From assembly GCA_044358905.1 (NCBI GenBank), contig JBIKND010000002.1, forward strand, positions 1 to 62,265: DNA of 62,265 nucleotides, in the 5' to 3' direction. Below are positions 7,182-45,447 of this stretch, piece after piece. The position numbers were made by a program, and so were the translations under genes. Positions within the stretch are counted from its first letter, which is position 1; the number at the start of each line of letters is the position of its first letter. Below the pieces are notes generated by a model that searched no databases, was not told the DNA's origin, and saw only the letters and a list, made by a program, of their open reading frames with translations. This DNA comes from Pirellulales bacterium (GTDB lineage: Bacteria > Planctomycetota > Planctomycetia > Pirellulales > UBA1268).

Positions 7182-8129
7182 ATGATCGTCGGCGTGCGGG
7201 GTGTGGATTCCTGGTGGCGGACTCTCGTGATGGCGGTCGTGGTGGTCGGGGCGGGGGCGGCCGTCGCGGCATCCCGAGTCGCCGCCGAACAGCCGCCGGC
7301 GATGGAGGCCGTGATGCGGGCGGAGGCGGAAGCGACGGTCAAGGCCTTCAATGCAGCCGATGCCGCGGCCCTGGCGAACGCGTTCCTCGAGGCGGGCGAG
7401 CTCGTCGACGAGGATGGCAACGTCTACACCGGCCGGGCCGAGATCGCCGGGTTATTCGAGAAGTTCTTCGCGCGGTTTCCCCAGGCCGTCCTGGAGATGG
7501 AAGTCAGTGGTGCCCGGCCGATCGGCGCGGCGCTGGCGGTCGAGGAGGGCGTGCGGCGGATCACGGCCGACGCGGGCGCTGCGGCCGCCCAGATGCGGTA
7601 CGTCGCCGTGCGGATGAAGCAGGGCGACCGGTGGCCCGTCGTCTCGTACCGCGAGTTTGCCGACGATCCCCTGCCGACGCCGCAGGAGATGCTCGCGGCC
7701 GTCGAGTGGCTCGTGGGGGAGTGGGTGGACGAGAGCGACGAGGGCCGGACGACGATCTCCTACCGCTGGAGCGAAGACGGCAACTTCATCATCGGCGAAT
7801 ACAGCCTCACCATCGGCGGCCAGTCGGCTGGCAAGAGCACGCAGCGCATCGGCTGGGACCCCGTCGAGGGTGAACTGCGGTCGTGGACGTTCGACTCCGA
7901 CGGCGGCTTCGCCGAGGGGGAGTGGGCCGCGGATGGCGCGGGCTGGATCATCAAGTCGGAGGCGACCATGCCGAGCGGTTCCACCGGGTCGGCGACGGTC
8001 ACCATCACGCCCAAGGATCAGGACCACTTCGTCGTCGAGAGCACCGATCGGATCGTCGGCGGCTCACCGGAGCCGGATTTCAAGCTCGTCGTCGCCCGCA
8101 AGCCGCCGGCTCCGGCGGCCGCCAAGTGA
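7182..8129 (+). CDS. Secreted NTF2/SnoaL-like (DUF4440-type) domain protein
   Basis: Signal-like N-terminus (WWRTLVMAVVVVGAGAAVAA). The segment AEATVKAFNAADAAALANAFLEAGELVDEDGNVYTGRAEIAGLFEKFF is typical of SgcJ/EcaC-type NTF2 folds. A second related half follows (WLVGEWVDES...). Family call is from motif memory only. Confidence 0.6.
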   Translation: MIVGVRGVDSWWRTLVMAVVVVGAGAAVAASRVAAEQPPAMEAVMRAEAEATVKAFNAADAAALANAFLEAGELVDEDGNVYTGRAEIAGLFEKFFARFPQAVLEMEVSGARPIGAALAVEEGVRRITADAGAAAAQMRYVAVRMKQGDRWPVVSYREFADDPLPTPQEMLAAVEWLVGEWVDESDEGRTTISYRWSEDGNFIIGEYSLTIGGQSAGKSTQRIGWDPVEGELRSWTFDSDGGFAEGEWAADGAGWIIKSEATMPSGSTGSATVTITPKDQDHFVVESTDRIVGGSPEPDFKLVVARKPPAPAAAK

Positions 8130-8161
8130 TTCCTCTTCATGCCTTTTTCGGAGCTGCCGTG

Positions 8162-10606
8162 ATGCGCGCTTTGGCCGCGACCGCTTGCCTCGTATTCGCT
8201 TTCGTGCTGGCCGCCGACGCCCACGGCCGCCCGTCCATGGGTCGCGCCGGCGGCGGCGGTGCTGGCCATCACGGAGTGGCCCACGGGGGGGCGGCGCCGC
8301 ATGCCCGTCCGCAGATGCCCCAGGCCAGGCCAGCGATGCCGCAGGCCAGGCCGGCAATGCCACAGGCCCGCCCTTCCATGCCGCAGGGCCGGCCGTCCAT
8401 GCCGCAGGCACGCCCGGCGATGCCCCAGGGACGGCCGAATGTCGGTGGCATGCAGCCGCCGCAGGTGCCGCATTTTCAACGGCCGAGTGTCGGTGCCATT
8501 CAGAGCCCGAACCTTGCACGGCCGTCGTTTCCGAACGCGGGTGCCGTTACCCGGCCCGCAGCGCCGCCGCCGACCGCGCGGCCGGGACTGGGATCCACGC
8601 GACCCGCACCAGGCGGTGCGGCAGGCGGAATCGCCCGCCCGCCGTTCGGTGCCGGTCCTGGCCAGGCAAGCATTCCCGGCGGCGGTTTCGCCACGCGTCC
8701 CACGCCTGGCTTTCGGCCCGGGGGCGGGCAGGCGGGGGCCGGCGGTCTGCCGAACGTCGGCGGAAATCGTCCTGGGCTCGGCACGCTTCCGGGAACCCCG
8801 GGGGGCATGCCGGGCTTGAACACGCGGCCGGTGCCAGGGATGCGGCCCGGACTTGGCGCCGCCACGAAGCCGTTTCCGGCGCCCGGCAGCGGCGGTGGCC
8901 TGAACGGCGGAAATCGTCCTGGGCTCGACGGAAATCGACCCGGTCAGGGTGGCGGCGGCCTGGCGGGCGGAAACCGGCCCACCACACTCCCGGGCACGAT
9001 CGGCGGCGGCGATCGGCCGAATCTCGGCGGCAATCGGCCGGGCGTCGGCGGTACTCGGCCGACGCCTTTGCCGGGTGACCTGGGTGCAGGGAACCGTCCG
9101 GGCGTCGGTGGCAACCGTCCGGGGCTCGGCAATCGGCCCGACGGCATCGGCAACCGGCCGGGTATCGGTGGCAATCGTCCCGGCATCGGCGGCAATCGGC
9201 CGACAACGCTGCCCGGCGATCTCGGCGGCCTGACGGGCGGCAATCGTCCGGATGGCGGCTGGAACAGGCCAAACGGCGGCTGGAATCGGCCCGGTATCGG
9301 CGGCAATCGCCCCGGCTGGAACCGTCCCGGCATCGGCGACAACAACAACTTCTGGAACAGCGGCAACATCAACATCAACAACGGCATCAATACCGGCTGG
9401 GGTGGGGGCTGGAACGGGGGCGGTTGGAACGGAGGCGGCTGGAACGGCGGTGCCTGGGGCTATCCGGGCTGGGGGGGCGGCTACGGTTTGAACCAGGGCT
9501 ATGTGAATCCGCACTACGGCAGTTGGTACAACGGCGGCTGGAACAATGGCTGGGGTGGATTCTGGGGCGGCTTCGCCACCGGCGCGGCGACCTGGGGCCT
9601 GGCGTCCGCACTCACGAACTGGGGGCTCGGCTACGGCTCGCTCGGCTACGCCGGCGGGGCTTACGTGAATCCGTATTACTCGGCCGTCCCGGCCACCGTC
9701 GTGGCCGCGTCGCCCTACGACTATTCCCAGCCGATCGTCGTCAACAACTACATCCCGGTCGACGGCGGCTCGACGGCGGGCGTGGCCACGGAGTCCGCTG
9801 CGCCGCCGTCGGCGCCCAGCGACGCTACGGTCGACGCCGCGCTCGAGAAGTTCAAGGCCGGTGACTACGCCGGCGCCTTGGCCGGCTTTGACGCGGCCCT
9901 CAAGGCGTCGCCCAACGATTCGGTGATCCACGAGGTAAGGGCGCTCGCGCTGTTTGCGCTCGGCCGCTACCCCGAGGCCGCCGCCACGCTGAATGCCGTG
10001 CTCGCCGCGGCGCCCGGCATGGACTGGACGACGGTCAGCAACCTGTATCCGTCCGTCGACGTCTATACGGCGCAGCTTCGCAAGCTCGAGGACTTCTGCC
10101 GCGCGAACCCCGGCGACGCGGCCGCCCACTTCGTGCTCGCCTATCAGTACCTCGTCGGCGGGCATTCCGACGCCGCGGCCTCGGCCCTCGAGGTCGTCGT
10201 CGCCAAGCAGCCGGGCGACATGGTGGCGAAGCGGCTTCTCGGGGCACTGAAGCCTACGGCCGAAGCCGCTCAGCCGGAGGCCGGGCAGGCGACGCAGGAG
10301 ACGGAGAAGCCCGCCGCCCCGGAGACCGACCTGGTCGGCACCTGGAAGGCCGGCAGCGGCACCGACGCGATCGTTCTCGAGATCACGGCGGATTCGAAGT
10401 TCAGCTGGAAGGCGGCGCCGGCCGGCAAGCCCGCGGTGGAACTGGCCGGGACGATCGAAACGGCCGCCGACGCGATCGCATTGCACAGCGAGAAGGCGGG
10501 CACGATGGCGGGCAAGGTGACCTCGAAGGGCCCCGACGCTTTCGAGTTTTCGCTGCCCGGGGCGCCGGCGGAAGCGAAGCCCCTGCTGTTTCAGCGGCAG
10601 CGATAG
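8162..10606 (+). CDS. Secreted multi-block low-complexity protein (MPQxRPx heptads, GNRPG repeats, GWNGG/aromatic-Gly block) with C-terminal TPR-like domain
   Basis: ATG at 8162 opens the signal peptide MRALAATACLVFAFVLAADAHG. Later blocks are described in the findings. TPR-like helices: FKAGDYAGALAGFDAALKASPND, ALALFALGRYPEAAATLNAVLAAAP, AHFVLAYQYLVGGHSDAAASALEVVVAKQP. Confidence 0.75.
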   Translation: MRALAATACLVFAFVLAADAHGRPSMGRAGGGGAGHHGVAHGGAAPHARPQMPQARPAMPQARPAMPQARPSMPQGRPSMPQARPAMPQGRPNVGGMQPPQVPHFQRPSVGAIQSPNLARPSFPNAGAVTRPAAPPPTARPGLGSTRPAPGGAAGGIARPPFGAGPGQASIPGGGFATRPTPGFRPGGGQAGAGGLPNVGGNRPGLGTLPGTPGGMPGLNTRPVPGMRPGLGAATKPFPAPGSGGGLNGGNRPGLDGNRPGQGGGGLAGGNRPTTLPGTIGGGDRPNLGGNRPGVGGTRPTPLPGDLGAGNRPGVGGNRPGLGNRPDGIGNRPGIGGNRPGIGGNRPTTLPGDLGGLTGGNRPDGGWNRPNGGWNRPGIGGNRPGWNRPGIGDNNNFWNSGNININNGINTGWGGGWNGGGWNGGGWNGGAWGYPGWGGGYGLNQGYVNPHYGSWYNGGWNNGWGGFWGGFATGAATWGLASALTNWGLGYGSLGYAGGAYVNPYYSAVPATVVAASPYDYSQPIVVNNYIPVDGGSTAGVATESAAPPSAPSDATVDAALEKFKAGDYAGALAGFDAALKASPNDSVIHEVRALALFALGRYPEAAATLNAVLAAAPGMDWTTVSNLYPSVDVYTAQLRKLEDFCRANPGDAAAHFVLAYQYLVGGHSDAAASALEVVVAKQPGDMVAKRLLGALKPTAEAAQPEAGQATQETEKPAAPETDLVGTWKAGSGTDAIVLEITADSKFSWKAAPAGKPAVELAGTIETAADAIALHSEKAGTMAGKVTSKGPDAFEFSLPGAPAEAKPLLFQRQR
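8315..8440 (+). repeat. Six tandem 21-bp repeats (in-frame, encoding MPQ[AG]RP[ASN] heptads)
   Basis: Read directly: atgccccaggccaggccagcg / atgccgcaggccaggccggca / atgccacaggcccgcccttcc / atgccgcagggccggccgtcc / atgccgcaggcacgcccggcg / atgccccagggacggccgaat. Confidence 0.9.
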
Positions 10607-10775
10607 GGCGGATTTGGGTTTCGCAGAGCTTGCGGGAAAGGCCCAATCCGGCTCGGAGACGGCATGAGTTGCGTCGCTGGCGAAGGTCCGCCACGCTCCG
10701 CATCCTCACGCCGATCCCCTCGCCTCCCCTGCCAGAGCTGCCAGTCCACTCTCTGCGTCCGTCGACCTCCCGGAC
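10604..10775 (+). repeat. Intergenic structured repeat, family 1 (subfamily 2), copy b
   Basis: The core ggcatgagttgcgtcgctggcgaaggtccgccacgctccgcatcctcacgccgatcccctcgcctcccc is about 95% identical to 35200-35270 and related to 23018-23108. The copy begins at the TAG stop (10604-10606) of the upstream gene. Confidence 0.75.
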
Positions 10776-10863
10776 GGTGGCAGGGGCGGCCGCGGCAGGC
10801 TAGGATTTGTCGGTCCCCGCGGCTTCGTCGCGGGGCTGCAGCACCCTGGAAGGCGAGCCCGTC

Positions 10864-11220
10864 ATGGAACAGTATCGCAGGATTCAGACCGGCAAGAAGG
10901 GCGAGATTCACCTTGTCGCCTTCAAGGACAAGAAGATCCTCGACGACACGGTCCTCGACGAGATCCGCACGGAACTGACGCAGCTCATCGGCAAGGCGTC
11001 CGGTCCCGACGTGCTCCTCGACTTCGGCAACGTGGAGTTCATGTCGAGCGCCATGCTCGGGCTCCTGGGGCAACTGCACCGCAAGATTTCGGCGGGCCAC
11101 GGCCGGCTGAAGATGTGCTCGATTCGTCCCGAGATCTTCCAGGTCTTCAAGCTCACGAACCTCGACAAGCTGTTCAGCATCCACAAGGACGCGCCGACGG
11201 CCCTGGCCACGTTCACCTGA
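10864..11220 (+). CDS. STAS-domain protein (anti-sigma-factor antagonist type)
   Basis: 118 aa from the ATG at 10864. STAS pattern LLDFGNVEFMSSAMLGLL aligns with SpoIIAA/RsbV ...FMDSSGLG and retains the phosphorylatable Ser position. Confidence 0.85.
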   Translation: MEQYRRIQTGKKGEIHLVAFKDKKILDDTVLDEIRTELTQLIGKASGPDVLLDFGNVEFMSSAMLGLLGQLHRKISAGHGRLKMCSIRPEIFQVFKLTNLDKLFSIHKDAPTALATFT

Positions 11221-11227
11221 CGCCGGC

Positions 11228-12652
11228 ATGGTCGTGGTGCAACAACCAAACGAGCCGGCGGCAGGTCGCGGCGTCGACGTCGTGATCGCCGAGGACAGTC
11301 GCATCCAGGCCCGGATGCTGATCCGGCGGCTCGAGGAGGCCGGGCATACGGTCAGGTGGGGCGAGACCGGCGCCCAGGCGTTGGCGCTGGCCCGCGAGCG
11401 GCGGCCCGACATCATCGTCTCCGACATCGAGATGCCGGAGATGACGGGCTACGAGTTCTGCAAGGCGGCGAAATCGGATCCCGCCCTCAAGACCGTGCCC
11501 TTCATCCTGCTTTCCACGCTCGCCGACCCGATCGACATCATCCGCGGGCTCGATGCGGGTGCCGACAACTACGTCACCAAGCCCTACGAGCCGGAGTTCC
11601 TCCTTGGCCGCATGCAGTCGCTGCTCGCGACGCCGCTGGAGTCGGCCGACGACGACGTGGCGGCCATGCTCGAGGTCACGCTCGCCGGCCAGAAGTTTCG
11701 CGTCAAAGCGGGCCGGCAGCAGGTGCTCAACCTGCTCGTGTCCACGTTCGAGAATGCCGTCGCCAAGAACCAGGAACTCGTGGTCGCCAACCAGGATTTG
11801 TCGGTCGCCCGCGACGGCTTGCAGCGGTCGAACGAGGAGCTCTCCACGGCCAATACCGAGATCTCCCGCATCAACGCCCACATGCTCCGCGATCTCAAAG
11901 CGGCGGCGAAGGTGCAGCGATCCCTCCTTCCGGCCGCCGACGTCGCCATTCCCGGCACGAGCGTCGCCTGGCGGTACGTTCCCTGCCAGAGCCTCGCCGG
12001 CGACTTCCTCAACGTCTTCCGGCTCGACGACGAGCATGCCGGCCTGTTCGTCGTGGACGTCAGCGGGCACGGCGTTCCCTCGTCGCTGATGGCCGTGACG
12101 GTGGGCCGCTTTCTCACCCCGAAGGTCACCGACCAGTCCTTGCTGGTGCGGCAGGGGCCGGACGGCCGGATCACCGTCGCTCGGCCGGCCGATGTGGCCA
12201 CGCAGCTCAATCGTCTGTTTCAGGCGGACGAGTTCTCCGGGCTGTATTTCACGCTGCTCTACGGCGTGCTCCATCTGCCCACGGGAAGGTTCGACTACTG
12301 CTCCGGCGGGCATCCGCCGCTCGTGCGGCTGCCGGCCGGCGGCGGGGCGGTCGAGTTTCACGCCATGGAGAGTTTTCCGATCGCCTTCGTGCCCGACGTC
12401 GAATACGAGCAGAGGACGCTGCAACTCGCGCCCGGCGACAGGCTGTTTCTCTATTCCGACGGCGTGCCCGAGGCGATGGACAAGGACAGGAACCCCTACG
12501 GCGACGAGGCGATGGCGGCCTGCATTGCCGGCTCACGCGTCGCGCCGATCGAAGATGGCGTCAAGGGCCTGCTGGAGGCCGTCGAACACTGGTGCGAGCC
12601 CGAGGGGCCGCTCGACGACGTCTCGATCCTCGGCGTCGAATGGCGGCCGTGA
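11228..12652 (+). CDS. Response regulator with PP2C/SpoIIE-type serine phosphatase output (RsbU-like)
   Basis: Receiver: VVIAEDS...PDIIVSDIEMPEMTG...NYVTKP, with canonical Asp, Thr/Ser and Lys. A coiled-coil linker follows. PP2C/SpoIIE part: AAKVQRSLLP...SLAGDFLNVF...LFVVDVSGHGVPSSL...LFLYSDGVPEA...DDVSILGVE. Confidence 0.9.
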   Translation: MVVVQQPNEPAAGRGVDVVIAEDSRIQARMLIRRLEEAGHTVRWGETGAQALALARERRPDIIVSDIEMPEMTGYEFCKAAKSDPALKTVPFILLSTLADPIDIIRGLDAGADNYVTKPYEPEFLLGRMQSLLATPLESADDDVAAMLEVTLAGQKFRVKAGRQQVLNLLVSTFENAVAKNQELVVANQDLSVARDGLQRSNEELSTANTEISRINAHMLRDLKAAAKVQRSLLPAADVAIPGTSVAWRYVPCQSLAGDFLNVFRLDDEHAGLFVVDVSGHGVPSSLMAVTVGRFLTPKVTDQSLLVRQGPDGRITVARPADVATQLNRLFQADEFSGLYFTLLYGVLHLPTGRFDYCSGGHPPLVRLPAGGGAVEFHAMESFPIAFVPDVEYEQRTLQLAPGDRLFLYSDGVPEAMDKDRNPYGDEAMAACIAGSRVAPIEDGVKGLLEAVEHWCEPEGPLDDVSILGVEWRP

Positions 12653-12653
12653 A

Positions 12654-13481
12654 TCACCGTTTGGGCTTCGGCGTGTAGTGGCTGCAGCCGCCGTGGGTGA
12701 TGCGGTTCCAGCCGTCGTCGATGCCGATCATCGTCTCGGCGCCGCCGAGAAACAGGCTGCCGTCGGGGCGCAGCACCCGGCGGACGCGGCCCACCAGGGC
12801 CGCGCGGGTCGGGACGTCGAAGTAGAGCATCACGTTCCGCAGGAAGACGACGTCGGCCAGCGGCATCATCGGCCAGGTGCCGGTGAGGTTGATGTGGCGA
12901 AACTCCACGAGCTGGCGACACTCCTGCACGATGCTCCAGCGGCCCTGCAGCGGCCGGAAGTATTTCTTCAACAGCCCCGGCGGCAGGCCACGATTCGTCT
13001 CCAACTCGCTGTACACCCCCTCCCGGGCCCGGGCCAGGATCGGCTCCGAGAAGTCCGTGGCGATGATCCGGATCCGCCACGTGGCCAGGAGGTCGCGGAA
13101 GTGCTCGAGGAGCAGCATCGCCATGCTGTAGGGCTCCTGCCCGGTCGAGCAGGCGGCCGACCAGAGCGTGAGCTGCCGGTCGGCGGCCCGTCGCGGCACG
13201 ACGTCGGCGAGCACGGCCCGTAACGCCTCGAATGGGGCGCGGTCACGGAAGAACGACGTCTCGTGCGTCATCATCGCGCACAGCACGTCCTTCTCGAGCG
13301 TCGGGTCGACGCCCTGCCGGACGCGGTCGATGAGGGTCTCGAGGCTCGGAATCTTCCGCTGCTTGACGATCGGCATCAGCCGGGCGACCACGAGGTAGTG
13401 CTTCGACTGGTCGATGCACACGCCCGTCCGCCGGCGCAGCAGGCCGCGGAGGTAGTCGAATTGGGGCTCGGCGACTTTCAT
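12654..13481 (-). CDS. cheR: Chemotaxis protein methyltransferase CheR
   Basis: Starts at the ATG at 13481 (MKVAEPQFDYLRGLL...). CheR N-domain plus SAM-binding domain (LTLWSAACSTGQEPYSMAMLL, FLRNVMLYFD). The upstream part of ORF 12654..13730 is Arg-rich non-coding-like sequence. Confidence 0.9.
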   Translation of the reverse strand: MKVAEPQFDYLRGLLRRRTGVCIDQSKHYLVVARLMPIVKQRKIPSLETLIDRVRQGVDPTLEKDVLCAMMTHETSFFRDRAPFEALRAVLADVVPRRAADRQLTLWSAACSTGQEPYSMAMLLLEHFRDLLATWRIRIIATDFSEPILARAREGVYSELETNRGLPPGLLKKYFRPLQGRWSIVQECRQLVEFRHINLTGTWPMMPLADVVFLRNVMLYFDVPTRAALVGRVRRVLRPDGSLFLGGAETMIGIDDGWNRITHGGCSHYTPKPKR

Positions 13482-13498
13482 CGCGGCTCCGCGCGGCT

Positions 13499-14950
13499 TC
13501 AGCCGCCGCGCCTCTTGAGCCGCAGGGCGACCTCGACGCCGACCTGTGACAGCGGGAGCACGGTGTCGGCGAGGCCCGCCCGCACCACCTCGCCCGGCAT
13601 GCCCCAGACCACGCTCGAGAACTCGTCCTGAGCGAGTACGGCGCCGCCGGCGTCTACGATCGCCCGGGAACCTGCCAGACCGTCGCGGCCCATGCCGGTG
13701 AGGACGACGCCCAGCGTGCCGGCCCCCCACAGCCGGGCCGCCGAGCGGAAGAGCACGTCCGCCGCCGGGCGGCAGGAGTTTTCCGGCGGATCGTCGGTGA
13801 GGCGCATCCGGGGCTGCGCGGCGTCGCCGACGAGTTCCATGTGGCGGCCGCCCGGGGCGAGCAGCACCTCGCCGGGCCGGGCCAGTTCGCCGTCGCTGGC
13901 TTCTCGCACAGGTAGGCCGGCCGTCTTGGCCAGCCTTTCGGCGAGGTGCGAGGTGAAGAACGCCGGCATGTGCTGGACGACGAGGATCGGGACGCGGGCA
14001 TCGGGAACGAATGCGGGCAGCACCTCGGCCAGGGCGCTCGGCCCGCCGGTGGACACGGCGACGACGACGCCCTGGATTCGCTCCTGCCGCGCGAGCCGCG
14101 GCGGTGTGGCCGTGCCGCCGGCGGGCCGCGCCGGCTCGCGTCTGCCGCCCGCGGCCCCACGGGGAACGAGTGCCTTGATGCGGCCGATCACGTCGGAGCG
14201 GATCCGGGCGGCGACCTCGCCGGCGTCGAGGCCGGCGGGCTTCGCGACGTAGTCGTTCGCGCCGGCGAGCAGGGCGTCGACCGTGGCCTTCGCCCCGCGC
14301 TCGGTCAGGCTGGAGAACATCACCACGGGTAGCTTGCCGAACCGGCGGCGAATCTCGCGTAGCGTCGTGATCCCGTCCATCACCGGCATCTCGACGTCGA
14401 GGAGCACGAGATCGGGACGGGCCGTGGGGATCATGTCCAGGCAGGCCGCGCCATGGAAGGCGGCCCCCGCGACCTTGATCTCCTGGTCGGCGCCGAGCGT
14501 CGTCGACAGGATGCTGCGGATCGTGGCCGAATCATCGCAGATCAGCACCCTGATCGGCTCGCGGTGAGTCGCCGGCTCCGGTTCCTTCACCACCCCCAGG
14601 CCGACGAGCTTGCGGGTGAAGGCGGCGGCCGTGAACGGCTTGGCCAGGTAGTCGTCAATCCCGGCCTGCTGCGCGACCGCGATCCGCTCCTGCTCGTGCT
14701 CGGTGGAGATCATGAGGATCGGCAGGCCGCGGTAGGCCGGCTCGCGCCGCAGCCGGCGGACGAGTTCGATCCCGTCCATGACCGGCATGTGCCAGTTGAC
14801 GGTGATCAGGTCGGGCCGGCCGCCCGCCGCGAGGGCGGCGAGCGCCTCCTGGCCGTTTCCGGCCTCGGTGCAGTCGAACCGCAGGTCGACCAGCGTCCGT
14901 GCGACGATGCTCCGCGCCGGTTTCGAATCGTCCACCACGAGCGCACGCAC
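13499..14950 (-). CDS. cheB: Protein-glutamate methylesterase CheB with an additional N-terminal receiver-like domain (REC-REC-CheB)
   Basis: GTG start at 14950, preceded by GGAGGA. REC1 covers aa 1 to about 118. REC2 has canonical Asp (DLVLLDVEMPVMDG). Methylesterase domain: VVAVSTGGPSAL, VVQHMP, VVLTGMGRDG. Confidence 0.9.
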   Translation of the reverse strand: MRALVVDDSKPARSIVARTLVDLRFDCTEAGNGQEALAALAAGGRPDLITVNWHMPVMDGIELVRRLRREPAYRGLPILMISTEHEQERIAVAQQAGIDDYLAKPFTAAAFTRKLVGLGVVKEPEPATHREPIRVLICDDSATIRSILSTTLGADQEIKVAGAAFHGAACLDMIPTARPDLVLLDVEMPVMDGITTLREIRRRFGKLPVVMFSSLTERGAKATVDALLAGANDYVAKPAGLDAGEVAARIRSDVIGRIKALVPRGAAGGRREPARPAGGTATPPRLARQERIQGVVVAVSTGGPSALAEVLPAFVPDARVPILVVQHMPAFFTSHLAERLAKTAGLPVREASDGELARPGEVLLAPGGRHMELVGDAAQPRMRLTDDPPENSCRPAADVLFRSAARLWGAGTLGVVLTGMGRDGLAGSRAIVDAGGAVLAQDEFSSVVWGMPGEVVRAGLADTVLPLSQVGVEVALRLKRRGG

Positions 14951-14999
14951 GACGGGATCCTCCGTGTCCCGACCGGCCGAGGCCGGTCATGGGCCGCGA

Positions 15000-17141
15000 T
15001 CAGTTCTTCTTGTATTCCTCGACGAGCCGCTGCAGGGCCTGGGCCATCCGGGCCAGTTCCTGCGACGAGACCTGCGTGTTCGACGCGCCTTCGGCCGTGC
15101 TCTGGGCCGCCTGTGCGACCTGCACGATGTTCTCGGCGATCTCCGAGGTGCCGGTGGTGGCCTCGGAGATGTTGCGGCTGATCTCGCCGGTCGTGACCGA
15201 CTGCTCCTCGACGGCCGCGGCGATCTTCGTCTGCAGGTCGTCGATCCGCTCGATCACCGTGCCGATCTCGGCGATCGCCTCGACGGCCCGCTGGGTGTCG
15301 CTCTGCATCGACTCGATCCGGCCGCCGATCTCCTCGGTCGCCTTGGCGGTGTCGCGGGCGAGTTCCTTGACCTCGCTGGCCACCACGGCGAAACCCTTGC
15401 CCGCCTCGCCCGCCCGGGCGGCCTCGATCGTGGCGTTGAGGGCGAGGAGGTTCGTCTGCTCGGCGATCGACGTGATCACCTTGATCACCGCGCCGATCTC
15501 CTGGCTCGATCGCCCCAGGGCGGCCATCGTGCCGGAGGTGGCGGTCGCCATCTCCACCGCCTTGCGGGCGGTACTGGCGGCATCTTGGGCGTTCTTGGCG
15601 ATCTCGTGGATGCTCGCCACGAGGTTCTCGATCGAGCCCGACACGGTCCGCGTGTTGCCACTGACCTGCTCCGCGGCGGCCGACACGAGGTTGGCCTGGG
15701 CGGTCGTCTCCTCGGCCGCGGCGCTCATCTGCTGGCTGACGCTCGTCAGTTCTTCCGACGAACTCGCCAGGGCGTGGGTGTTGTCGACGATCCCGCCGAC
15801 GAGGGCCGCCTGTCGCTGGGCCTCGCGGGTCAGCCGTCGGGCGATGAGGGTCGACACGGCGAGGACGGCCGCGGACGTGAGCCCGAACACCATGAGCCCG
15901 AGCTTCAGCAGCCGCGATACCGGCTCGAACACCTCGGCGGAGTCGATCTCCGAGAGCAGGGCCCAGCGGACATCGCCGCGGCCGCTGGCATCGCGGTGGA
16001 TCGTGACCGGCCGCCACGAGACGAGCGACGGCACGCCCCGGTAGTCGGCGGCCTCGGCCGTGCCGGCCTTGCCCTCGTCGATCGCGGAGCGGACCGCGGC
16101 GGTATCAACCTTGAACTCCGGGTTGATGATCGTGGACTTCGCCCCCATCTCCTCCGCGAATCGCGAGTCGCTGCGGAACAGGCGGTCGGCGCCGATCGCG
16201 TACGTCTCGCCGGTGCGGCCCATGCCGGTGGTCTCGCCGATGATGGCATTCACTTTGTCGATCGGCACCTGGAAGGCGACGGCGCCCACGAGCGTCCGGC
16301 CCTCGTAGATCGGTGCCGCCATGAAACTCGCCGGCTCGTTGCAAGAGGGCAGGTAACGCTGGAACTGACCGAAGGCCACGGCGTCGCGGCGGCCGGATGA
16401 CACCGCCTGGAGGAAGGCCGTTCCCAGGCTCGAAGACGCGAGCGGGCCTTCGCGGAGCGAGCCGCCGAAGTCCACCTCCTTCGACACGTTGTAGACGACC
16501 TTGCCGGAAGGGCCGTCGATGAGAAACACGTCGGAAACGCCGTACTTCTCCATGAGACCACGGAAGAACGGATGGTATTTGGCATGGGCCTTCGAATAGG
16601 CCGAGCCATCGTCGGCAGCATCGAGGAGGAACTTCGATCCGATGGGGTTGGGGTTGTTGCGGATATAGAGGTACTGTGCGTAGGCCGAGTCGTCGTCGAG
16701 GGCCTGGGCCAGCGGCCGCACGTCGAGGACATCGTCGGAGCGGCGGCGAAACTCGGCCGCAAAATCGCCGGTGTAGAAAGCCTCGAGGTCGCGGCGGGCG
16801 GCCGCGAGAGCCTTGTCATCCACCTTGTCGTCGGCCCGCAGCGTGGACAGGCCGCCAGTCAGGTCGTTCAGCGCCTCGACGCAGATCCGGCCGTCGGCGA
16901 GCACCGAAAGTTCCTGCCGCAGGGAGGTGAAGTACCGCTCCACGGACTTCGCCGTCACGGCGTTGACGGTGTCGAGCTGTTTGAAGGCTTGCTCCCGCAG
17001 GGCGGCCGCGGATGAGCGGTAACTCGTCAGCCCCATGAAGGCCATGGGAATCAGCGATACGCCGAGGAGCGCGAGAAGCAGTGGATTGGTGAGGAACGAA
17101 CGCCAGCCGCCGGTCGTGCCGGTGGAATCACGGTCTGCCAT
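15000..17141 (-). CDS. Methyl-accepting chemotaxis protein with large periplasmic (Cache-like) sensor region
   Basis: Two TM segments flank a periplasmic region of about 330 aa. Highly conserved MCP hairpin tip: [37 protein letters not shown]. Confidence 0.92.
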
Positions 17142-17172
17142 GGGGACTTCCTGCCTCTCGGTTGCCTGCGGC

Positions 17173-17607
17173 TCAGCGCCGCGTGAGTGAATGAATCATG
17201 CGCTGGGGATCGAGCAGATGCACGAGCTGTTCGGGGGCGGCGTAGATGCCCGTCAACGGGTCGGCACCATCGCCGCCGGGCGTCGTCTGCTCGATCGCGT
17301 CCGCGGGGATCTCGACGACGTCGTGCATCTCGTCGATGACCAGCGCGTACCAGTCGTCCTGCAGCGCGATCACCAGGAGCGTGGCCCGGTCCGGGCTTGG
17401 GCGATCGACGCCCAGGCGGGCGGCGGGGTCGACGACGGGCACGATCCGGCCGCGGAGGTGGACGAGGCCGAGGACGCCGACCGGCGCCAGCGGTACCCGG
17501 GTCGCATGCCCGGCCCGCAGGACCTCCACGACGCCGTCCGCCGGGACGGCGAAGCAGGCGTTACCTATGCGGAACGTGCAGCAGCGGTGGGTGAGGGCGG
17601 TGGTCAT
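17173..17607 (-). CDS. cheW: Chemotaxis coupling protein CheW
   Basis: 144 aa from the ATG at 17607. The start is separated by a 4-nt gap from the cheA stop codon (17612-17614). CheW-like fold pattern: [22 protein letters not shown]...[14 protein letters not shown]. Confidence 0.85.
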
Positions 17608-17611
17608 GGCG

Positions 17612-19855
17612 TCAGGCCTCGAGGAGGGCGCGATGCCGCGCGGCGCCGAGATCGACCACCTCGGTCGCCACCCCACCGAGAGACAGGATGCCGGCGATGC
17701 CGGTGGCCGACGCCGGCTGCAGCGGTGACTCGGCCGCGAGCACGTCGAGAATCGTGCCGACCGAGAGGCCCACGTCTCCGTCGAGCACGACGACGCTGAC
17801 GGTGTCGGCGGTGGCCGGGGCGCCACAGCCTGCCAGGATCGCATCGACGTCGGCCAGCGGCGTGAAGGCGTCGCCCCGGCGGACGACGGTCCGGTCGCCG
17901 ACCACCTGCAGGGCGGTGCGGGAGTGCTTCTCGAGTCGCACTACGTCGGCCAGTGGCACGGCCACCCGTCGGCCCGCGGGCGTGCCGCAGACGAGGTAGC
18001 GGTCGGCAATTTCGGCCGCCGGCACGACGACGGCCTCGGGCTCACGGTCCACCGGCGGCAGGCGGGCCGCCCGCAGCAGGCCACGGAGGTCCAGGATCAG
18101 GACCACGCCCCCGTCGCCGAGCACCGTGGCGCCGGAGTAGAGACCGAGGCCGGCGAGCAGGCCGCCGATCGGCTTGACGACGATGGTCGACAGGCTGGCG
18201 GCATCGAGCAGATCGCGGCAGCGGAAGTGGTCGGCACCGGACTGCATGCCGTCGACGACGAGGCCGAACTCCCGGTCGTCGACCCGCACGAGCACCACTG
18301 TGCCCTCCGTGCGGCAGGCAGTCGTCGCGCGGATGCCGAGGAATTGATCGAGGAACAGGATCGGCACGAGCCGGCCGCGGACCCGCATCACCGGCGCCTC
18401 CGGCAGGCCCTCGATCCGCGGGCCTTGGCGGTCGCGGGACACGGGCACGAGTTCGCCCACCGCCGACTGCGGAATGGCGAACCGCTCGCTGCCGCAGCGG
18501 AAGACGAGCGCCGGCATGATCGCCAGCGTGAGCGGAACATGCACCCGGACGGTCGTGCCGGCGCCGGGCACGCTGTGGATGTCGACCGTGCCGCCGATCG
18601 CCTCGATGTTGGTGCGCACGACGTCCATGCCGACGCCGCGGCCGGAGACGCTCGTCACGGCCGCCGCGGTGGAGAAGCCGGGCTCGAAGATGAACTGCAG
18701 CACGCGGTCCGGCGGCATGGTCGCCGCCTCCGCGGCGGACACGAGCCCCCGGGCGATCGCCTTCTCGCGGACTTTTTCGAAGGCGATCCCGCCCCCGTCG
18801 TCGGAGACCTCGATCGTCACCCGGCCGCTCTCGTTGAAGGCCCGCAGCGAGAGCCGGCCCGCCCGCGGCTTGCCGGCCGCCACGCGGGCCTCCGGCGTCT
18901 CGATGCCATGATCGACGGCGTTGCGGATCAGATGCGTGAGCGGGTCGCGGATGCTCTCGATCAGCGATCGATCGAGCTCGGTGTCGGCGCCGTCGATCGC
19001 CAACTGCACCTCCTTGCCGCAGGAGACGGCGAGGTCACGAACCGTGCGCGGGAAGCGACTGAAGACGTGCTCGACTGGCTGGAGCCGCGTCCGGACCGCG
19101 GTTTCCTGGAGGGCGTTGGTCACGGCGTTGATCCGCTGCGTGCACGCCTGCACGGCGGGGTCGTCGCTGTCGACGCTGCGCAACTGGTTGCGGGCGAGCA
19201 CCAGTTCGCCGACGAGGTCGAGGATCGAGGCGAGCAGGCCGACGTCGACCCGGATGGTGGAGTCGACGATGGTGGGGCCGGCCGGGGCCGCAGCCGGGGG
19301 CTCGGGCGGTGCGGGGGGCGGTGCCGTGGCGGCGTTGGTCGGCGGCGCCTGGGGTGCGGCTGGCGCCGCGGGGACCGGTGGCGGGACTGGCTCGGCAGCG
19401 ACCGATGCGGCGGGCGTCGGCACGCGAGGGGCGGATGGCGGTGCGGCCGTGACGGCCGGCGTTCCCTCCTCGTCCGCTGCCACGGCCGCGAGCGATCGCG
19501 AGAGATCGCGGTAGTCGTGCTCGCCCTCCGCGCCGGTCGCTTCGATCGTCCGCAGGATCGTCCGCACGGCATCGACCATCGAATACAGCGATCCGGTCAC
19601 GCGATCGTTGAGCGTGAGCTTGCCGTCCCGGAGCTTGCCGAGCAGGTGCTCGCCGCTGTGGGCGAGGGCGCCGAGCTTCGAGAAACCGAAGAAACCGCTG
19701 TTTCCCTTGATCGTGTGGACGGTGCGGAAGATGCTCGCCACGCGCTGCGAATCGTCGGGGTGCTCCTCGAGCGCGAGCAGATCGCGGTCAAGCTGGTCGA
19801 GGTTCTCGCTCGATTCGACGAGAAACTCGCCGATGAACTCGCGGTTGTCGCTCAT
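17612..19855 (-). CDS. cheA: Chemotaxis histidine kinase CheA (Hpt - Pro/Ala linker - dimerisation - HATPase - two CheW-like domains; no receiver)
   Basis: Hpt motif FRTVHTIKGNSGFFGF. HATPase motifs HLIRNAVDHGIE, DDGGGI, GRGVGMDVV. P5 CheW-like domain, followed by a second CheW-like domain at the C-terminus. Confidence 0.93.
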   Translation of the reverse strand: MSDNREFIGEFLVESSENLDQLDRDLLALEEHPDDSQRVASIFRTVHTIKGNSGFFGFSKLGALAHSGEHLLGKLRDGKLTLNDRVTGSLYSMVDAVRTILRTIEATGAEGEHDYRDLSRSLAAVAADEEGTPAVTAAPPSAPRVPTPAASVAAEPVPPPVPAAPAAPQAPPTNAATAPPPAPPEPPAAAPAGPTIVDSTIRVDVGLLASILDLVGELVLARNQLRSVDSDDPAVQACTQRINAVTNALQETAVRTRLQPVEHVFSRFPRTVRDLAVSCGKEVQLAIDGADTELDRSLIESIRDPLTHLIRNAVDHGIETPEARVAAGKPRAGRLSLRAFNESGRVTIEVSDDGGGIAFEKVREKAIARGLVSAAEAATMPPDRVLQFIFEPGFSTAAAVTSVSGRGVGMDVVRTNIEAIGGTVDIHSVPGAGTTVRVHVPLTLAIMPALVFRCGSERFAIPQSAVGELVPVSRDRQGPRIEGLPEAPVMRVRGRLVPILFLDQFLGIRATTACRTEGTVVLVRVDDREFGLVVDGMQSGADHFRCRDLLDAASLSTIVVKPIGGLLAGLGLYSGATVLGDGGVVLILDLRGLLRAARLPPVDREPEAVVVPAAEIADRYLVCGTPAGRRVAVPLADVVRLEKHSRTALQVVGDRTVVRRGDAFTPLADVDAILAGCGAPATADTVSVVVLDGDVGLSVGTILDVLAAESPLQPASATGIAGILSLGGVATEVVDLGAARHRALLEA

Positions 19856-20014
19856 CCCCTCGGACGGCCTGGCGGGCCGGACCTTGGCGCCTGCGTTAAC
19901 GGTGCGGAATGCGGCGACCTTGCCGCCCTGCCGTCTCGGTCAAGCATACACCGCGATTCACGCCGCCGGGCGCCGGTCCGACCGGTGCGACCGTCAGGAT
20001 CGGTCTCCTGGCAA

Positions 20015-21286
20015 TCACGGAGTTCCGGCGGCTAGCCGGAGCGCCTCCGCGGTCCGCTGGGCGTCGAGCAACGGCCACAGCGCGTCGATGTCGTCCTTGA
20101 AGATGTCGCCGATGAGGATGTCGGTGATCAACGCCTTGCGGTCGGGGTGGGAGCGGACGAACCGGCCGAAGTTCAGGCCGTCGTAGAAGGCGCACACGAG
20201 TTTCCGCATCCGCTCCAGGCCCGCGACGTAGCCGGGGCCCCAGCAGCCGAGCCGATTCGCCGACACGTCTCCCGCCGCCAGAGCGGCGACGATCGCATCC
20301 GCCGCCAGCGTACCGCTCTTGAGGGCCAGGAGGATGCCGGACGAATACAGCGGATCGAGGAACCCAAAGGCGTCGCCCACGAGCACCCAGCCGTCTCCGG
20401 CCACCTGCCGGGATCGGTACGAATATTCCTTGGCCACGCGGAAGGGCCCGATCTGCTCGGCGGACGCGATCCGCGGTTGCACGCCGGGGCAGCGATCGAC
20501 CTCCTCGAAGAAGATTGCTTCCGCATCCTTGCCGGGACGTTCCTTGAACAGGTAGTCGAACGGCGCGACGACGCCGACGCTGACGACGTCGTCCTGCAGC
20601 GGGATGTACCAGAACCAGCCCTTCTTGCCGCGGGTCTGCATCACGAGCGTGGAGCCTGCGTCACGCCCGGTGTCGCGAGCGGCCCCTTTCCAGTACGTCC
20701 AGATCGCCGCCTTCTTGAGGACCGGGTCCCATTCGCGGAGGCCGAGCCGATCCTGGATGATGCAACTCTGTCCGGCAGCGTCGACCACCACCTGGCAGCG
20801 GATCGTCTCTTCGGTCCCGCGATCGTCGACCACACGCACGCCGACCGCCCGGCCACCCTCGAAGAGCACGTCGAGCACCCGCACGCCCTCGCGGACCTCG
20901 GCCCCGTGTTCCCGGGCGTTGTCGAGCATCATGGTGTCGAACTCGGCTCGGCTTACCTGCCAGGTACGGGCGCTCTCATGAGGCTTATAGTCGGCGAAAT
21001 AGAAAGGCTCGGACAGCCGCCCCTGCTCGGAGACGAACTGCACGCTGTGCTTCTCCACGAACGGGCTGCCGCGCAACTTGGGGAGCATGCCCAACCGGTC
21101 GAGTGCCCAGAACGTCTCGGGAATCAGCGACTCACCGATGTGGTAGCGGGGAAACCGCTCCCGCTCCAGCACGAGGACGCGCCGGCCTTCCTTGGCCACG
21201 AGCGTGGCGGCGGTGGCCCCGGCCGGGCCGCCGCCGATGACGACGACCTCCGGGTCGACGGACCGGATCATGGTGAAGTCCTCCAC
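20015..21286 (-). CDS. FAD-dependent oxidoreductase with flavin-dependent halogenase signature motifs
   Basis: GxGxxG (VIGGGPAG), GESLIP, WxWxIP motif (GWFWYIPL), and GDAFGFLDPLYSSG, which matches Fx.Px.Sx.G. About 420 aa, the usual size of non-Trp flavin halogenase or geranylgeranyl-reductase-like enzymes. Confidence 0.75.
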   Translation of the reverse strand: MEDFTMIRSVDPEVVVIGGGPAGATAATLVAKEGRRVLVLERERFPRYHIGESLIPETFWALDRLGMLPKLRGSPFVEKHSVQFVSEQGRLSEPFYFADYKPHESARTWQVSRAEFDTMMLDNAREHGAEVREGVRVLDVLFEGGRAVGVRVVDDRGTEETIRCQVVVDAAGQSCIIQDRLGLREWDPVLKKAAIWTYWKGAARDTGRDAGSTLVMQTRGKKGWFWYIPLQDDVVSVGVVAPFDYLFKERPGKDAEAIFFEEVDRCPGVQPRIASAEQIGPFRVAKEYSYRSRQVAGDGWVLVGDAFGFLDPLYSSGILLALKSGTLAADAIVAALAAGDVSANRLGCWGPGYVAGLERMRKLVCAFYDGLNFGRFVRSHPDRKALITDILIGDIFKDDIDALWPLLDAQRTAEALRLAAGTP

Positions 21287-25395: not shown

Positions 25396-25447
25396 GGGCG
25401 GGATCCTCTGGGCGGGGCGGGGCGACGGACCGATCGCTCGCTAGCAT

Positions 25448-26416
25448 ATGCGAATCCGTGGCCCGGAGAACACCGGTTTCAGTCCGGCCACGAGCCCGAC
25501 GGCGTCGCCAGGAACATCGCTCGTGCACATCGAATCCACATGGATCGCCGATACGTTCGCCGAGGCCTTCCGGCTTCGGTTCACGCGGCTGATCGTCACT
25601 GCCCACGATGCCCATTGGCTCGACGCCGCCGTGCGGGCGGCCTGCGGCTACGGCACGAGCGTGATCGGATGCGATGCGGAAGTCGGCGTGGAGCGGATGC
25701 TGACGGCCACTGAAACCCCGGACGGACGCCCGGGCGCGGCGCTGCTGGCCTTCGCGTTCTCGACGGAGGCCCTCGGCAAGGCGGTGGCCAATCGCACGTC
25801 GCAGTGCCTGCTCACCTGCCCGACGACGGCGGTTTTCGACGGCTTGCCAACGGCCGAGGAGCGGGTCCCGCTCGGGAGCCACGCGCGATTTTTTGGTGAC
25901 GGTTTCGAGAAGTCGAAGGTCCTCGACGGGCGGCGGTTCTGGCGGATCCCCGTGATGGACGGCGAGTTCCTGATCGAGGAGTCGGTGGGCGTGGACAAGG
26001 GCGTCGGGGGCGGCAATTTCATTCTGCAGGCGCGGAGCCTCGATCACGGTCTGGCCGCGGCCCGCCGTGCCGTCGCCGCGATCGCTCCGATGGCCGGGGT
26101 GATCACACCTTTCCCCGGCGGCGTCGTCCGTTCCGGCAGCAAGGTCGGCTCGCGATACGCGGCGCTGCGGGCCTCCACCAACGACGCCTTTTGTCCGGCG
26201 CTCGTGGGCCGGGCGGGCGGAGAACTGCTCCCTGAAGTCGCCTGTGCACTGGAGATCGTGATCGACGGGATCGACGAGGCGGCGGTTGCGGCCGCGATGG
26301 CGGCGGGATTGCGGGCCGCCGCCGGCCCCGATGTGCCGGCGATCTCGGCCGGCAACTACGGTGGCAAACTGGGCAAGTTCCACTTCCATCTTCGCCAGAT
26401 TCTCGGCGCGGCGTGA
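25448..26416 (+). CDS. fhcD: Formylmethanofuran--tetrahydromethanopterin N-formyltransferase (Ftr / FhcD-like)
   Basis: Collinear with archaeal Ftr as I remember it: IADTFAEAF, GYGTSVIGC, ETPDGRPG, FFGDGFE...DGRRFWRIPVMDGEFLIEES, GGGNF, PFPGGVVRSGSKVGS, ASTNDAFCP, ISAGNYGGKLGKFHFHL. Confidence 0.88.
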   Translation: MRIRGPENTGFSPATSPTASPGTSLVHIESTWIADTFAEAFRLRFTRLIVTAHDAHWLDAAVRAACGYGTSVIGCDAEVGVERMLTATETPDGRPGAALLAFAFSTEALGKAVANRTSQCLLTCPTTAVFDGLPTAEERVPLGSHARFFGDGFEKSKVLDGRRFWRIPVMDGEFLIEESVGVDKGVGGGNFILQARSLDHGLAAARRAVAAIAPMAGVITPFPGGVVRSGSKVGSRYAALRASTNDAFCPALVGRAGGELLPEVACALEIVIDGIDEAAVAAAMAAGLRAAAGPDVPAISAGNYGGKLGKFHFHLRQILGAA

Positions 26417-37761: not shown

Positions 37762-38155
37762 CTTCCGTCCGCCCCCCCGTGCCGCGCAGATCCCGTTGTG
37801 TTGGCATCGGCAGAATGCCGCCCAATACCAAGTGTCCCCCCTACAATCGCCCCATTTTCAAAGGGTCTTTATGCTGCAAGGGCTGCTGGAATGAGACGCT
37901 TGTCAAGGGCGGGCCGAGCCACAACTCGAAGCGGCACAGGGGTTTGCGTCGCGGACTCCGGCCGGGGTCGACTGCGGCCTGGAGGACGCGGCGGAAAAAC
38001 ACTCAAGAGACGCCGCGGCGACGGTGAACCGGGATTGGACCGTCGCCGTATAACTGGGGCGTCCTGAAACACGGATGGACGGGGTCAAGGATGTCCCCGG
38101 AGTTCTTTCGTCTTCGAGCACCTGTCGGCACGGAACGGCCGACGCGGAGGAAACC

Positions 38156-44561: not shown

Positions 44562-44711
44562 GAGAAGCCCCGGGCGGAAGCCCGGGGACACCGGGTGAGA
44601 AGACCTTCCCGTGGTCCATGGGGGAAGGGTGTCGGCCCAAGCCCGGGTCGGGCTCGTGTCGGCTTGCAACCGGGGAGATGCGTCCCCCGGCTTCCGCCCG
44701 GGGGCTTCTTG
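44562..44711. repeat. GC-rich palindromic-unit pair, family 2, copy 1 (inverted units flanking about 75 nt)
   Basis: Left unit GAGAAGCCCCGGGCGGAAGCCCGGGGACACCGG (44562-44594). Right unit CCGGGGAGATGCGTCCCCCGGCTTCCGCCCGGGGGCTTCTTG (44670-44711). Each unit is itself a hairpin (CCCCGGGC-GGAA-GCCCGGGG), and the two units are mutually reverse-complementary. Confidence 0.8.
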
Positions 44712-44742
44712 TGCTGGGGGCTTCATCCAGCGGCGAGCCGAA

Positions 44743-45399
44743 TCACGGCAGCCGCTTCACGCGGATGTTGCGGTAGTGGACCTCGCTGCCGGGGTCGTGG
44801 GCCTGGATGGCGAAGGTGCCCGCGGAGAGTTTCCGCGTGCCCGTCACGCCCTCGGGCTCCACGAACTCGTAGAGCACGCGGCCATCGACCCGCACCGTCA
44901 CGGCCTTGCCCACCACCATCACTTCGAGCGTGAACCACGTGTCGTCCTCCGCCGGGGCGGTGAAGTTTTTGACCACGTTGTAGAGGCTGCCGGTGCGGAC
45001 CGGGTCGCCCTGGGAGTTGTTGACCTGCACCTCGTGGCCATGGGCCGGCCAGCCGTCGGGCTGCGGGCGGGTGTGGATGAAGAGACCGGAGTTCGCTCCC
45101 GGCCGCGTCATCACTTCCGCCTTGAAGTGAAAGTTCTTGAACTCGGCCGGCTTGGCGGTATCGGCGCCGACGTAGAACAGGTGGCTGCGGGGCCCCTTGC
45201 AGACGATCGCCCCGTCGACGACCCGCCAGCTGTCGGGGTTTTCGTTCGGCTTCCAGCCTGCCAGACTCTTACCATCGAAGAGCGGCTCGAAGCCGGCTTC
45301 GTCGGCTCCCGCGAATCCGCCTATGACCGCCATCAGGCATGCGCCGAGCGCGGCGACCGCGATCCCGCGAACCCAGCCCCATCGACCTGCGTATTCCAT
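44743..45399 (-). CDS. DUF1080 (3-keto-disaccharide hydrolase-like) domain protein, secreted
   Basis: ATG at 45399. Signal peptide (WVRGIAVAALGACLMAVIGGFAGA). DUF1080 pattern: FEPLFDGKSLAGWK...WRVVDGAIVC...NSGLFIHTRP...HEVQVNNS...FAIQAHDPGSEVHYRNIRVK. Confidence 0.8.
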   Translation of the reverse strand: MEYAGRWGWVRGIAVAALGACLMAVIGGFAGADEAGFEPLFDGKSLAGWKPNENPDSWRVVDGAIVCKGPRSHLFYVGADTAKPAEFKNFHFKAEVMTRPGANSGLFIHTRPQPDGWPAHGHEVQVNNSQGDPVRTGSLYNVVKNFTAPAEDDTWFTLEVMVVGKAVTVRVDGRVLYEFVEPEGVTGTRKLSAGTFAIQAHDPGSEVHYRNIRVKRLP

Positions 45400-45447
45400 G
45401 TTCGAACCCCCTGTCGCCCGGGGTCGGCCGCTGCCGCCGCGGGAATC

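Follow-up and report, generated by a model that had tools for sequence, protein, structure and literature searches.

A chemosensory operon with an acceptor-less CheY-CheB fusion adjoins a STAS/receiver-phosphatase pair in freshwater planctomycetes

Organization of the locus

The subject of this work is a chemosensory (che) operon and the pair of putative partner-switching genes next to it in a Pirellulales bacterium (assembly GCA_044358905.1, contig JBIKND010000002.1, positions 1 to 62,265, forward strand). We refer to this whole 62 kb stretch of DNA as the window. Its gene map was obtained from six-frame open reading frames (ORFs), codon-position GC content and profile searches. The minus strand carries cheA-cheW-mcp-cheB-cheR, with intergenic gaps of 4, 31, 49 and 17 nt. 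The plus strand carries two genes, 7 nt apart, that encode a STAS protein and a response regulator in which a receiver (REC) is joined to a PP2C/SpoIIE phosphatase domain (REC-PP2C). The two units meet tail-to-tail, the stop codon of the REC-PP2C gene (TGA, 12650-12652) and that of cheR (TCA, 12654-12656) being separated by 1 nt. An earlier reading of this DNA, made without database searches (the sequence-only reading), had given the same gene map, coordinates, gaps of 4-49 nt and 1 nt stop spacing, and all were reproduced.

A Pfam scan of the substantial ORFs of the window detects no stand-alone CheY. The same scan finds no RsbW/SpoIIAB-type GHKL kinase in the window, and there is none among the called genes that flank the pair in relatives. 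The sole sigma-70 family gene (38054-39634) lies about 18 kb from cheA with unrelated genes between, and no cognate sigma factor adjoins the pair. Crude ORF clustering across 80 loci, in which some antisense ORFs were mis-called, likewise reveals no conserved kinase or sigma neighbour. The sequence-only reading was therefore right in reporting neither a kinase of this type nor an adjacent sigma factor. A promoter and terminator scan of 10400-20300 gave nothing exceeding the shuffled expectation.

The window sequence recurs in at least 20 lake-water metagenomes, and no RNA runs containing it were found. Its closest relatives are lake-water metagenome-assembled genomes labelled Pirellulales or Planctomycetaceae. 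The names of these relatives, together with YTV-repeat genes and an FTR gene in the window, support placement in the Planctomycetota.

The STAS and receiver-phosphatase pair

The first gene of the pair (10864-11220, plus strand) encodes an anti-sigma-factor-antagonist-like STAS protein of 118 aa (Pfam PF01740, E = 1.2e-10), which passes the TIGR00377 model with 54.6 bits against a cutoff of 53.45. In an alignment with SpoIIAA (1TH8), Ser62 (codon 11047-11049) takes the position of the phosphorylated serine, and both Ser61 and Ser62 are invariant in 79 of 79 orthologues. The ratio of nonsynonymous to synonymous substitution rates (dN/dS) is 0.05-0.19.

The second gene (11228-12652, plus strand) encodes the 474 aa REC-PP2C regulator, in which a receiver (Response_reg, E = 2.7e-22, residues 18-127) is followed by a helical linker (residues ~130-245) and a SpoIIE domain (PF07228, E = 5.3e-39, residues 268-472). 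The receiver is canonical, with Glu22, Asp23, Asp66, Thr97 and Lys118 in place; the codon of the acceptor Asp66 lies at 11423-11425. Asp66, Thr97 and Lys118 are invariant in all 80 orthologues. The predicted PPM phosphatase domain has the motifs GDF, DVSGHG, SDG and DD, and the orthologue alignment shows Asp259, Asp277, Asp411, Asp463 and Asp464 to be invariant. Orthologues likewise show no variation in these motifs or at Glu22 and Asp23 of the receiver. No HATPase domain was matched in the protein, which ends with the PPM domain at residue 472.

An AlphaFold2 model of REC-PP2C, built on a 19-sequence alignment with a mean predicted local distance difference test score of 63.7, was too weak outside the receiver to be used for a fold search. 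It places linker helices at residues 163-196 and 202-231 with low confidence, so that the coiled coil described by the sequence-only reading survives as two long predicted helices. Such a linker would be compatible with the crossing-linker mechanism of RsbU and RssB (PMC12143880).

The best Protein Data Bank match to REC-PP2C is RssB of Pseudomonas aeruginosa (3EQ2/3F7A, E = 5e-36, aligned over the receiver and over linker plus PPM domain). The best NCBIfam match is also an RssB model (NF045505), at 139.3 bits and far under its cutoff of 700. The regulator is 77-93% identical to members of more than 120 protein clusters, and relatives occur in 373 species-level genomes. The STAS gene adjoins the PP2C gene in 79 of 80 loci; the exception, L074, begins inside the PP2C gene. 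In sequence and gene order the two genes form a separable, highly conserved and always paired module that resembles the RssB/RssC and RsbY/RsbV types.

Origin of the CheB pseudo-receiver

The cheB gene (13499-14950, minus strand) encodes a cheY::cheB fusion of 483 aa, in which Pfam recognizes two receivers and a CheB_methylest domain (NCBIfam CheB, 415 bits). The first receiver, REC1 (14597-14950), has CheY (PRK10610) as its best family match and is a CheY-derived pseudo-receiver. The second, REC2 (14216-14554), is canonical, with Asp185 as acceptor. The methylesterase domain (13538-14068) carries Ser300, His327 and Asp423, all of which are invariant. At the acceptor position of REC1 there is an asparagine, Asn52 (codon AAC, 14795-14797), within the motif TVNWHMP. 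REC2 and the receiver of the PP2C regulator are thus the only canonical receivers of the neighbourhood, as the sequence-only reading had stated. Its description of the operon as lacking CheY needs qualification: no stand-alone or phosphorylatable CheY is present in the window, and yet CheY is there as a pseudo-receiver fused to CheB.

Asn52 is invariant in 37 of 37 full-length CheB orthologues, as is the NWHMP motif around it. REC1 is conserved as well as REC2 and the catalytic domain, and its dN/dS is 0.04-0.15. The invariance, the conservation and the low ratio together mark REC1 as a maintained pseudo-receiver rather than a decaying one. A single transition, GAC to AAC, accounts for the replacement of aspartic acid by asparagine. 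Apparent retention of the aspartic acid in REC1 of eight orthologues was rejected as a tblastn artefact; the PP2C receiver had been matched in loci without cheB.

The ancestry of REC1 was approached through outgroup che operons, reached by a metagenome scan with the CheB alignment. In these operons (L085-L089, L092, L099 and L101) CheB and CheR share 40-50% identity with those of the window, and the CheA architecture is the same. The counterpart of REC1 is encoded on its own in these operons, by a cheY of about 122 codons that lies directly upstream of cheB, ends in a stop codon and carries the canonical motif VDWNMPVMDG. Whereas the window clade has a fused receiver with NWHMP, the outgroups have a stand-alone CheY with DWNMP and no STAS or PP2C gene after cheR (to 9 kb in L099, 3.4 kb in L092 and 2.5 kb in L087). 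No flagellar genes occur among the neighbours of the L099 operon, which is not informative on its class. At intermediate distance, with CheB identities of 60-70%, the loci L081-L083 all have the in-frame fusion, the asparagine and the convergent PP2C-STAS genes. These comparisons indicate that a separate ancestral cheY was fused in frame to cheB in this clade and that its acceptor aspartic acid was replaced by asparagine. In the literature searched we found no account of a natural CheY::CheB fusion with an asparagine acceptor.

The C-terminal part of REC1 carries the sequence YLAKPFTAA, which we take to resemble enteric CheY. Along with the DWNMP motif of the outgroup cheY, this suggests descent from a motor-type system.

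In two related operons (L094, 12169-13347; L095, 3823-5078), where CheB has a single receiver, cheR is followed by two separate cheY genes with DWNMP. Where cheY lies with respect to cheB and cheR is thus not fixed in this che lineage.

Chemosensory components

The core Che set, consisting of CheA (P1 histidine and P3-P5), CheW, MCP, CheB and CheR, is complete by Pfam and NCBIfam. All segments of the locus are under purifying selection (dN/dS 0.03-0.3), and more than 50 species-level genomes retain all five che genes in intact form.

CheA (17612-19855, minus strand; 747 aa) comprises P1/Hpt, P3, P4 and P5 and an extra C-terminal domain. The phosphorylation site in P1 is His47 (19715-19717), and the histidine is kept in orthologues. 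No P2 domain was detected, a Pro/Ala-rich linker standing in its place. Pfam finds no receiver domain in CheA, which confirms the absence of a C-terminal receiver stated by the sequence-only reading. The extra domain follows P5 and spans 151 residues (597-747; 17615-18067, minus strand). It shows no Pfam or BLASTP similarity and matches CheW in a profile-profile comparison with a probability of 91.5% (E = 8.8e-7). The two CheW stretches that Pfam reports in CheA are instead one split P5 domain. The outgroup operons with a normal cheY also have the extra CheW-like domain, which is thus a trait of the CheA lineage and not of a link to PP2C.

CheW (17173-17607, minus strand; 144 aa; Pfam CheW, E = 5e-28) starts 4 nt past the cheA stop. 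The methyl-accepting chemoreceptor (MCP; 15000-17141, minus strand; 713 aa; MCPsignal, E = 5.8e-34) has two transmembrane segments and no HAMP domain. The sequence-only reading had called it Cache-like. There is indeed a Cache-like periplasmic domain, yet the dCache_1 match is under the Pfam cutoff (37 versus 45 bits). The two arms of its signalling hairpin measure about 141 and 134 residues, lengths that would suit classes 36H-40H, and alignments with Tsr and TM1143 are ambiguous. CheR (12654-13481, minus strand; 275 aa) is an MCP methyltransferase with CheR (E = 2.4e-50) and CheR_N matches in Pfam.

In one otherwise close relative (L007, 9926-12528) the segment that covers the ligand-binding region of mcp and cheW has a dN of 0.43-0.49, against 0.04-0.11 elsewhere in the operon, which suggests replacement by recombination.

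Conservation of gene order

Conservation of the cheR/PP2C/STAS adjacency was checked in relatives from both sides, using 71 informative species-level loci for the pair and ten CheB lineages for the operon. The che operon directly follows the PP2C gene in 47 of the 71 loci, and the PP2C-STAS genes lie beside cheR in eight of the ten lineages. Six of the lineages, both non-adjacent ones included, were checked in sequence, and all are of the NWHMP type. The adjacency is also kept in the distant relatives L081-L083, two of which (L082 and L083) have a CheB identity of only 60%.

In the nearest 80 loci, PP2C is followed by cheR in 40 of 62, whereas STAS is preceded by the upstream neighbour found in the window in only 17 of 64, and the PP2C/cheR junction is the best kept around the pair. 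The outer flanks of the seven-gene block vary between lineages. Upstream of STAS there may be genes for a TPR protein, His_Phos_1 with RNase HII, a fatty-acid desaturase, BBP7 or a methyltransferase; upstream of cheA there may be a FAD-halogenase-like, a CCP_MauG or a 3-keto-disaccharide hydrolase gene. At one locus (L042, 2541-3706) a gene for another receiver-domain protein stands between PP2C and cheR, on the PP2C strand.

The pair and the che operon are two modules, each able to exist without the other.

Comparison with characterized systems

All of the protein families at the locus are known. What is novel is their combination: a pseudo-CheY::CheB, a CheA with an extra CheW-like domain and a kinase-less REC-PP2C/STAS pair placed tail-to-tail. 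Of the parts of a partner switch, the STAS phosphoserine position and the PPM motifs are present, and a local GHKL kinase and an adjacent sigma factor are absent.

The closest characterized two-gene unit is RssB-RssC of the Pseudomonadaceae (PA2798/PA2797 in P. aeruginosa, and also in Azotobacter vinelandii), in which a REC-helical linker-PPM protein is paired with a single-domain STAS protein and the operon contains no GHKL kinase. As in our REC-PP2C, the phosphatase motifs of P. aeruginosa RssB are intact (PMC12143880). In these organisms the two proteins act jointly to hand sigma-S over to ClpXP (PMC12143880, PMC12923157). This known role, as an adaptor for proteolysis, concerns a proteobacterial factor, whereas the host of the window lies outside the Proteobacteria. 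The regulator is not an RssB orthologue, given its score of 139.3 against 700 bits. The gene order is reversed, with STAS first, and rssBC has no che operon alongside.

Among receiver-PP2C proteins known to target a STAS antagonist, the closest is RsbY of the Bacillus cereus RsbK-RsbY-RsbV system (with RsbM). Once phosphorylated by the kinase, RsbY dephosphorylates the STAS antagonist RsbV, and the kinase is tuned by a CheR-type methyltransferase (PMC4574943, PMC9912610). The B. cereus kinase is, however, a hybrid sensor kinase that is itself methylated, on its signalling helix, while the candidate in the window is CheA, as part of an MCP array. In B. cereus the genes for RsbW and SigB accompany the others, whereas no RsbW or sigma factor gene is near the pair in the window.

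A chemosensory cluster is linked to a receiver-phosphatase and a STAS protein in Shewanella oneidensis (CrsR-CrsA) and in P. aeruginosa, where HptB-HsbR-HsbA includes a receiver-phosphatase regulator and a STAS antagonist (PMC6482189). A non-motility output has been proposed in both cases from this linkage. The sequence-only reading had named Che3 as the Shewanella precedent; the cluster linked to CrsR-CrsA is in fact Che1 (F7), and Che3 is the chemotaxis system (PMC9855816). The connection from Che1 to CrsR is still tentative, being worded as 'could be' (PMC9855816). CrsR and HsbR both carry a third domain, a GHKL kinase/anti-sigma domain (PMC6482189), which is absent from our REC-PP2C. In Shewanella crsR and crsA lie within the che1 locus and CheY1 is present (PMC9855816), whereas in the window the pair runs convergent to the operon and CheY takes the form of a pseudo-receiver joined to CheB. 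STAS genes also occur in the che clusters of Campylobacterota (PMC9239204).

A possible route from the array to the switch

The sequence-only reading had proposed that the array converts ligand sensing into dephosphorylation of the STAS protein. The lack of a phosphorylatable CheY, the invariance of Asp66 and Ser62 and the kept adjacency strengthen this proposal, and the observations on the independence of the two modules given below weaken it.

The route that we infer, with all of its phosphotransfer steps, its direction of regulation and its downstream partner, would run as follows. The che operon descends from an ordinary cheA-cheW-(mcp)-cheY-cheB-cheR operon. Since the REC1 acceptor is now an asparagine, the phosphate of CheA can pass within the operon only to REC2 of CheB, and the receiver of REC-PP2C is the obvious candidate output for the operon. 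Where the operon is present, phosphorylated CheA would also phosphorylate the neighbouring REC-PP2C. Phosphorylation of Asp66 would act by way of the helical linker to control the activity of a PPM phosphatase dimer, as receiver-controlled PPM phosphatases give precedent for (PMC12143880). This enzyme would dephosphorylate the STAS protein at Ser62, and the unphosphorylated STAS protein would bind a partner encoded elsewhere, either a GHKL kinase/anti-sigma factor or another target. A ligand at the Cache-like MCP would in this way change the phosphorylation state of the STAS protein instead of steering a motor.

That CheA feeds REC-PP2C is plausible but unproven, and we would give it rather less than even weight. 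The locus consists of two tail-to-tail modules; in this reading the pair would be the autonomous front end of a partner switch, which the che operon may serve, with the same reserve, as a dispensable sensory input. The composite reading goes further. A motor-type operon may have been rewired in these abundant freshwater planktonic planctomycetes, with CheY turned into a pseudo-receiver on CheB and the phosphate of CheA redirected to REC-PP2C. A methylation-adapting array would then set the phosphorylation of the STAS serine in an optional partner switch that has no local kinase or sigma factor. We call the chemosensory-driven switch optional since a lineage can lose the array and still retain the switch. 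Taken as a whole, this reading is possible and clearly tentative.

The most serious alternative is that the two modules are independent neighbours. The pair would be served by a histidine kinase elsewhere, the output of the che operon would be an orphan CheY or contacts made by the pseudo-CheY-CheB protein, and the adjacency would be an inherited order in compact genomes. A range of observations favours independence and weighs against a link. Firstly, the units are convergent, so there is no shared transcript. Secondly, the operon is often missing while the pair is untouched. In eight of the 71 loci PP2C abuts the FAD-halogenase-like gene that lies beyond cheA in the window (20015-21286), a clean absence of the 7.2 kb operon, and in a further 16 other genes follow PP2C. 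The che-less loci are scattered over the regulator tree, in at least four clean-deletion clades and about ten further clades. The pair must then have at least one phosphodonor or input other than CheA, or a role that is independent of phosphorylation. A locus without che need not mean a genome without it: two lineages carry the operon elsewhere, and only the eight loci in which PP2C abuts the FAD-halogenase-like gene are counted as clean deletions. Thirdly, the receiver of REC-PP2C is conserved equally without and with the operon (0.884 versus 0.896, p = 0.25), and no group-specific receiver residues distinguish che-bearing from che-less loci. The survival of the pair and this equal conservation imply that CheA is not the sole phosphodonor of REC-PP2C and may not be one at all.

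The junction itself points the same way. At five loci unrelated genes, for a HAD-like phosphatase, a sulfatase or another receiver protein, stand between PP2C and cheR. In two abundant lineages, P0191 and P0169, the operon is away from the pair, with a CBM9/GSDH protein gene as neighbour in one and DUF480, DUF202 and alpha-2-macroglobulin genes in the other. Equally tight convergent ends are found between cheR and unrelated genes, so that close packing is a general feature of the genome. With a length of just 1-20 nt the junction is a small target for rearrangement, and its persistence may therefore be neutral. The receiver of REC-PP2C has the motif SDIEMP, which is not CheY-like, and only about 30% identity to REC1 of CheB. 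The loss of the CheY acceptor does co-occur with PP2C-STAS adjacency, but this is effectively one evolutionary event. An orphan CheY may be encoded elsewhere in the genome, and the two-gene rssB-rssC unit needs no che system (PMC12143880, PMC12923157).

Independence nevertheless leaves unexplained why the CheY of the operon lost its acceptor and yet stayed under purifying selection, and why the PP2C/cheR junction outlasts the other junctions of the block. It also requires both an unseen kinase and an unseen CheY. We regard independence, too, as a real possibility that falls well short of probable.

The operon might instead be a relic, in which motor control was lost when the CheY aspartic acid became asparagine and which is now disappearing from one lineage after another and no longer has any sensory output. 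Repeated independent losses of the operon and the single transition that removed the acceptor would fit such a history. The five intact che genes in so many species, the low dN/dS on all segments and on the pseudo-receiver itself, the invariance of the asparagine and its flanking motif, and the retention of the CheB catalytic triad and the CheA histidine all contradict it, and we consider it very unlikely. Least probable of all is a reversed flow, in which the pair regulates the array, for example through unphosphorylated STAS protein binding to the MCP, CheA or pseudo-CheY; for clusters of Campylobacterota it has been proposed that a STAS protein acts on a chemoreceptor (PMC9239204), and the extra CheW-like domain and the pseudo-CheY offer unexplained docking surfaces, but the extra CheA domain occurs in outgroup operons with no pair nearby and the pair persists where che is missing.

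The question of whether CheA feeds the phosphatase is of wider interest. Few model systems are known in which a chemosensory array has an output other than motility, and even in Shewanella the coupling of an array to a partner switch is as yet no more than a proposal. The present locus offers a testable natural before-and-after, with separate canonical cheY genes in the outgroups and a fused, acceptor-less CheY beside a receiver-phosphatase/STAS pair in the clade, in organisms that recur in many lake metagenomes. Were the phosphatase fed by CheA, the locus would show how a chemotaxis pathway is turned to the control of protein phosphorylation or of gene expression and would open up signalling biology in the Planctomycetota, where none of this is characterized. 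If it is not, a function is still needed for the conserved pseudo-CheY-CheB fusion and for a kinase-less STAS/REC-PP2C pair that is RssB/RssC-like outside the Proteobacteria.

Other features of the window

Upstream of STAS lies the gene for a large protein (7883-10606, plus strand; likely start after 8129) with one N-terminal hydrophobic segment. TPR repeats occur only at residues ~650-780, and the first ~590 residues match no Pfam family. This gene precedes the pair in only about one quarter of relatives. The sigma-70 protein (38054-39634, plus strand) has regions 2 and 4 at its C-terminus and a long N-terminal part with several weak, separate helix-turn-helix matches; its gene has no synteny link to the che/pair locus.

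The FTR gene (25445-26416, plus strand) encodes a formylmethanofuran-tetrahydromethanopterin formyltransferase with both lobes and belongs to the tetrahydromethanopterin-linked one-carbon transfer gene set, which is typical of Planctomycetota. Further along, a minus-strand ORF (44743-45516) with a strong 3-keto-disaccharide hydrolase match (E = 1.7e-38) lies inside the 5' part of a 1243-codon plus-strand ORF (44599-48330). The ABC-transporter domains of the latter begin at residue 477, so the true start of the transporter gene is probably far downstream of the ORF start.

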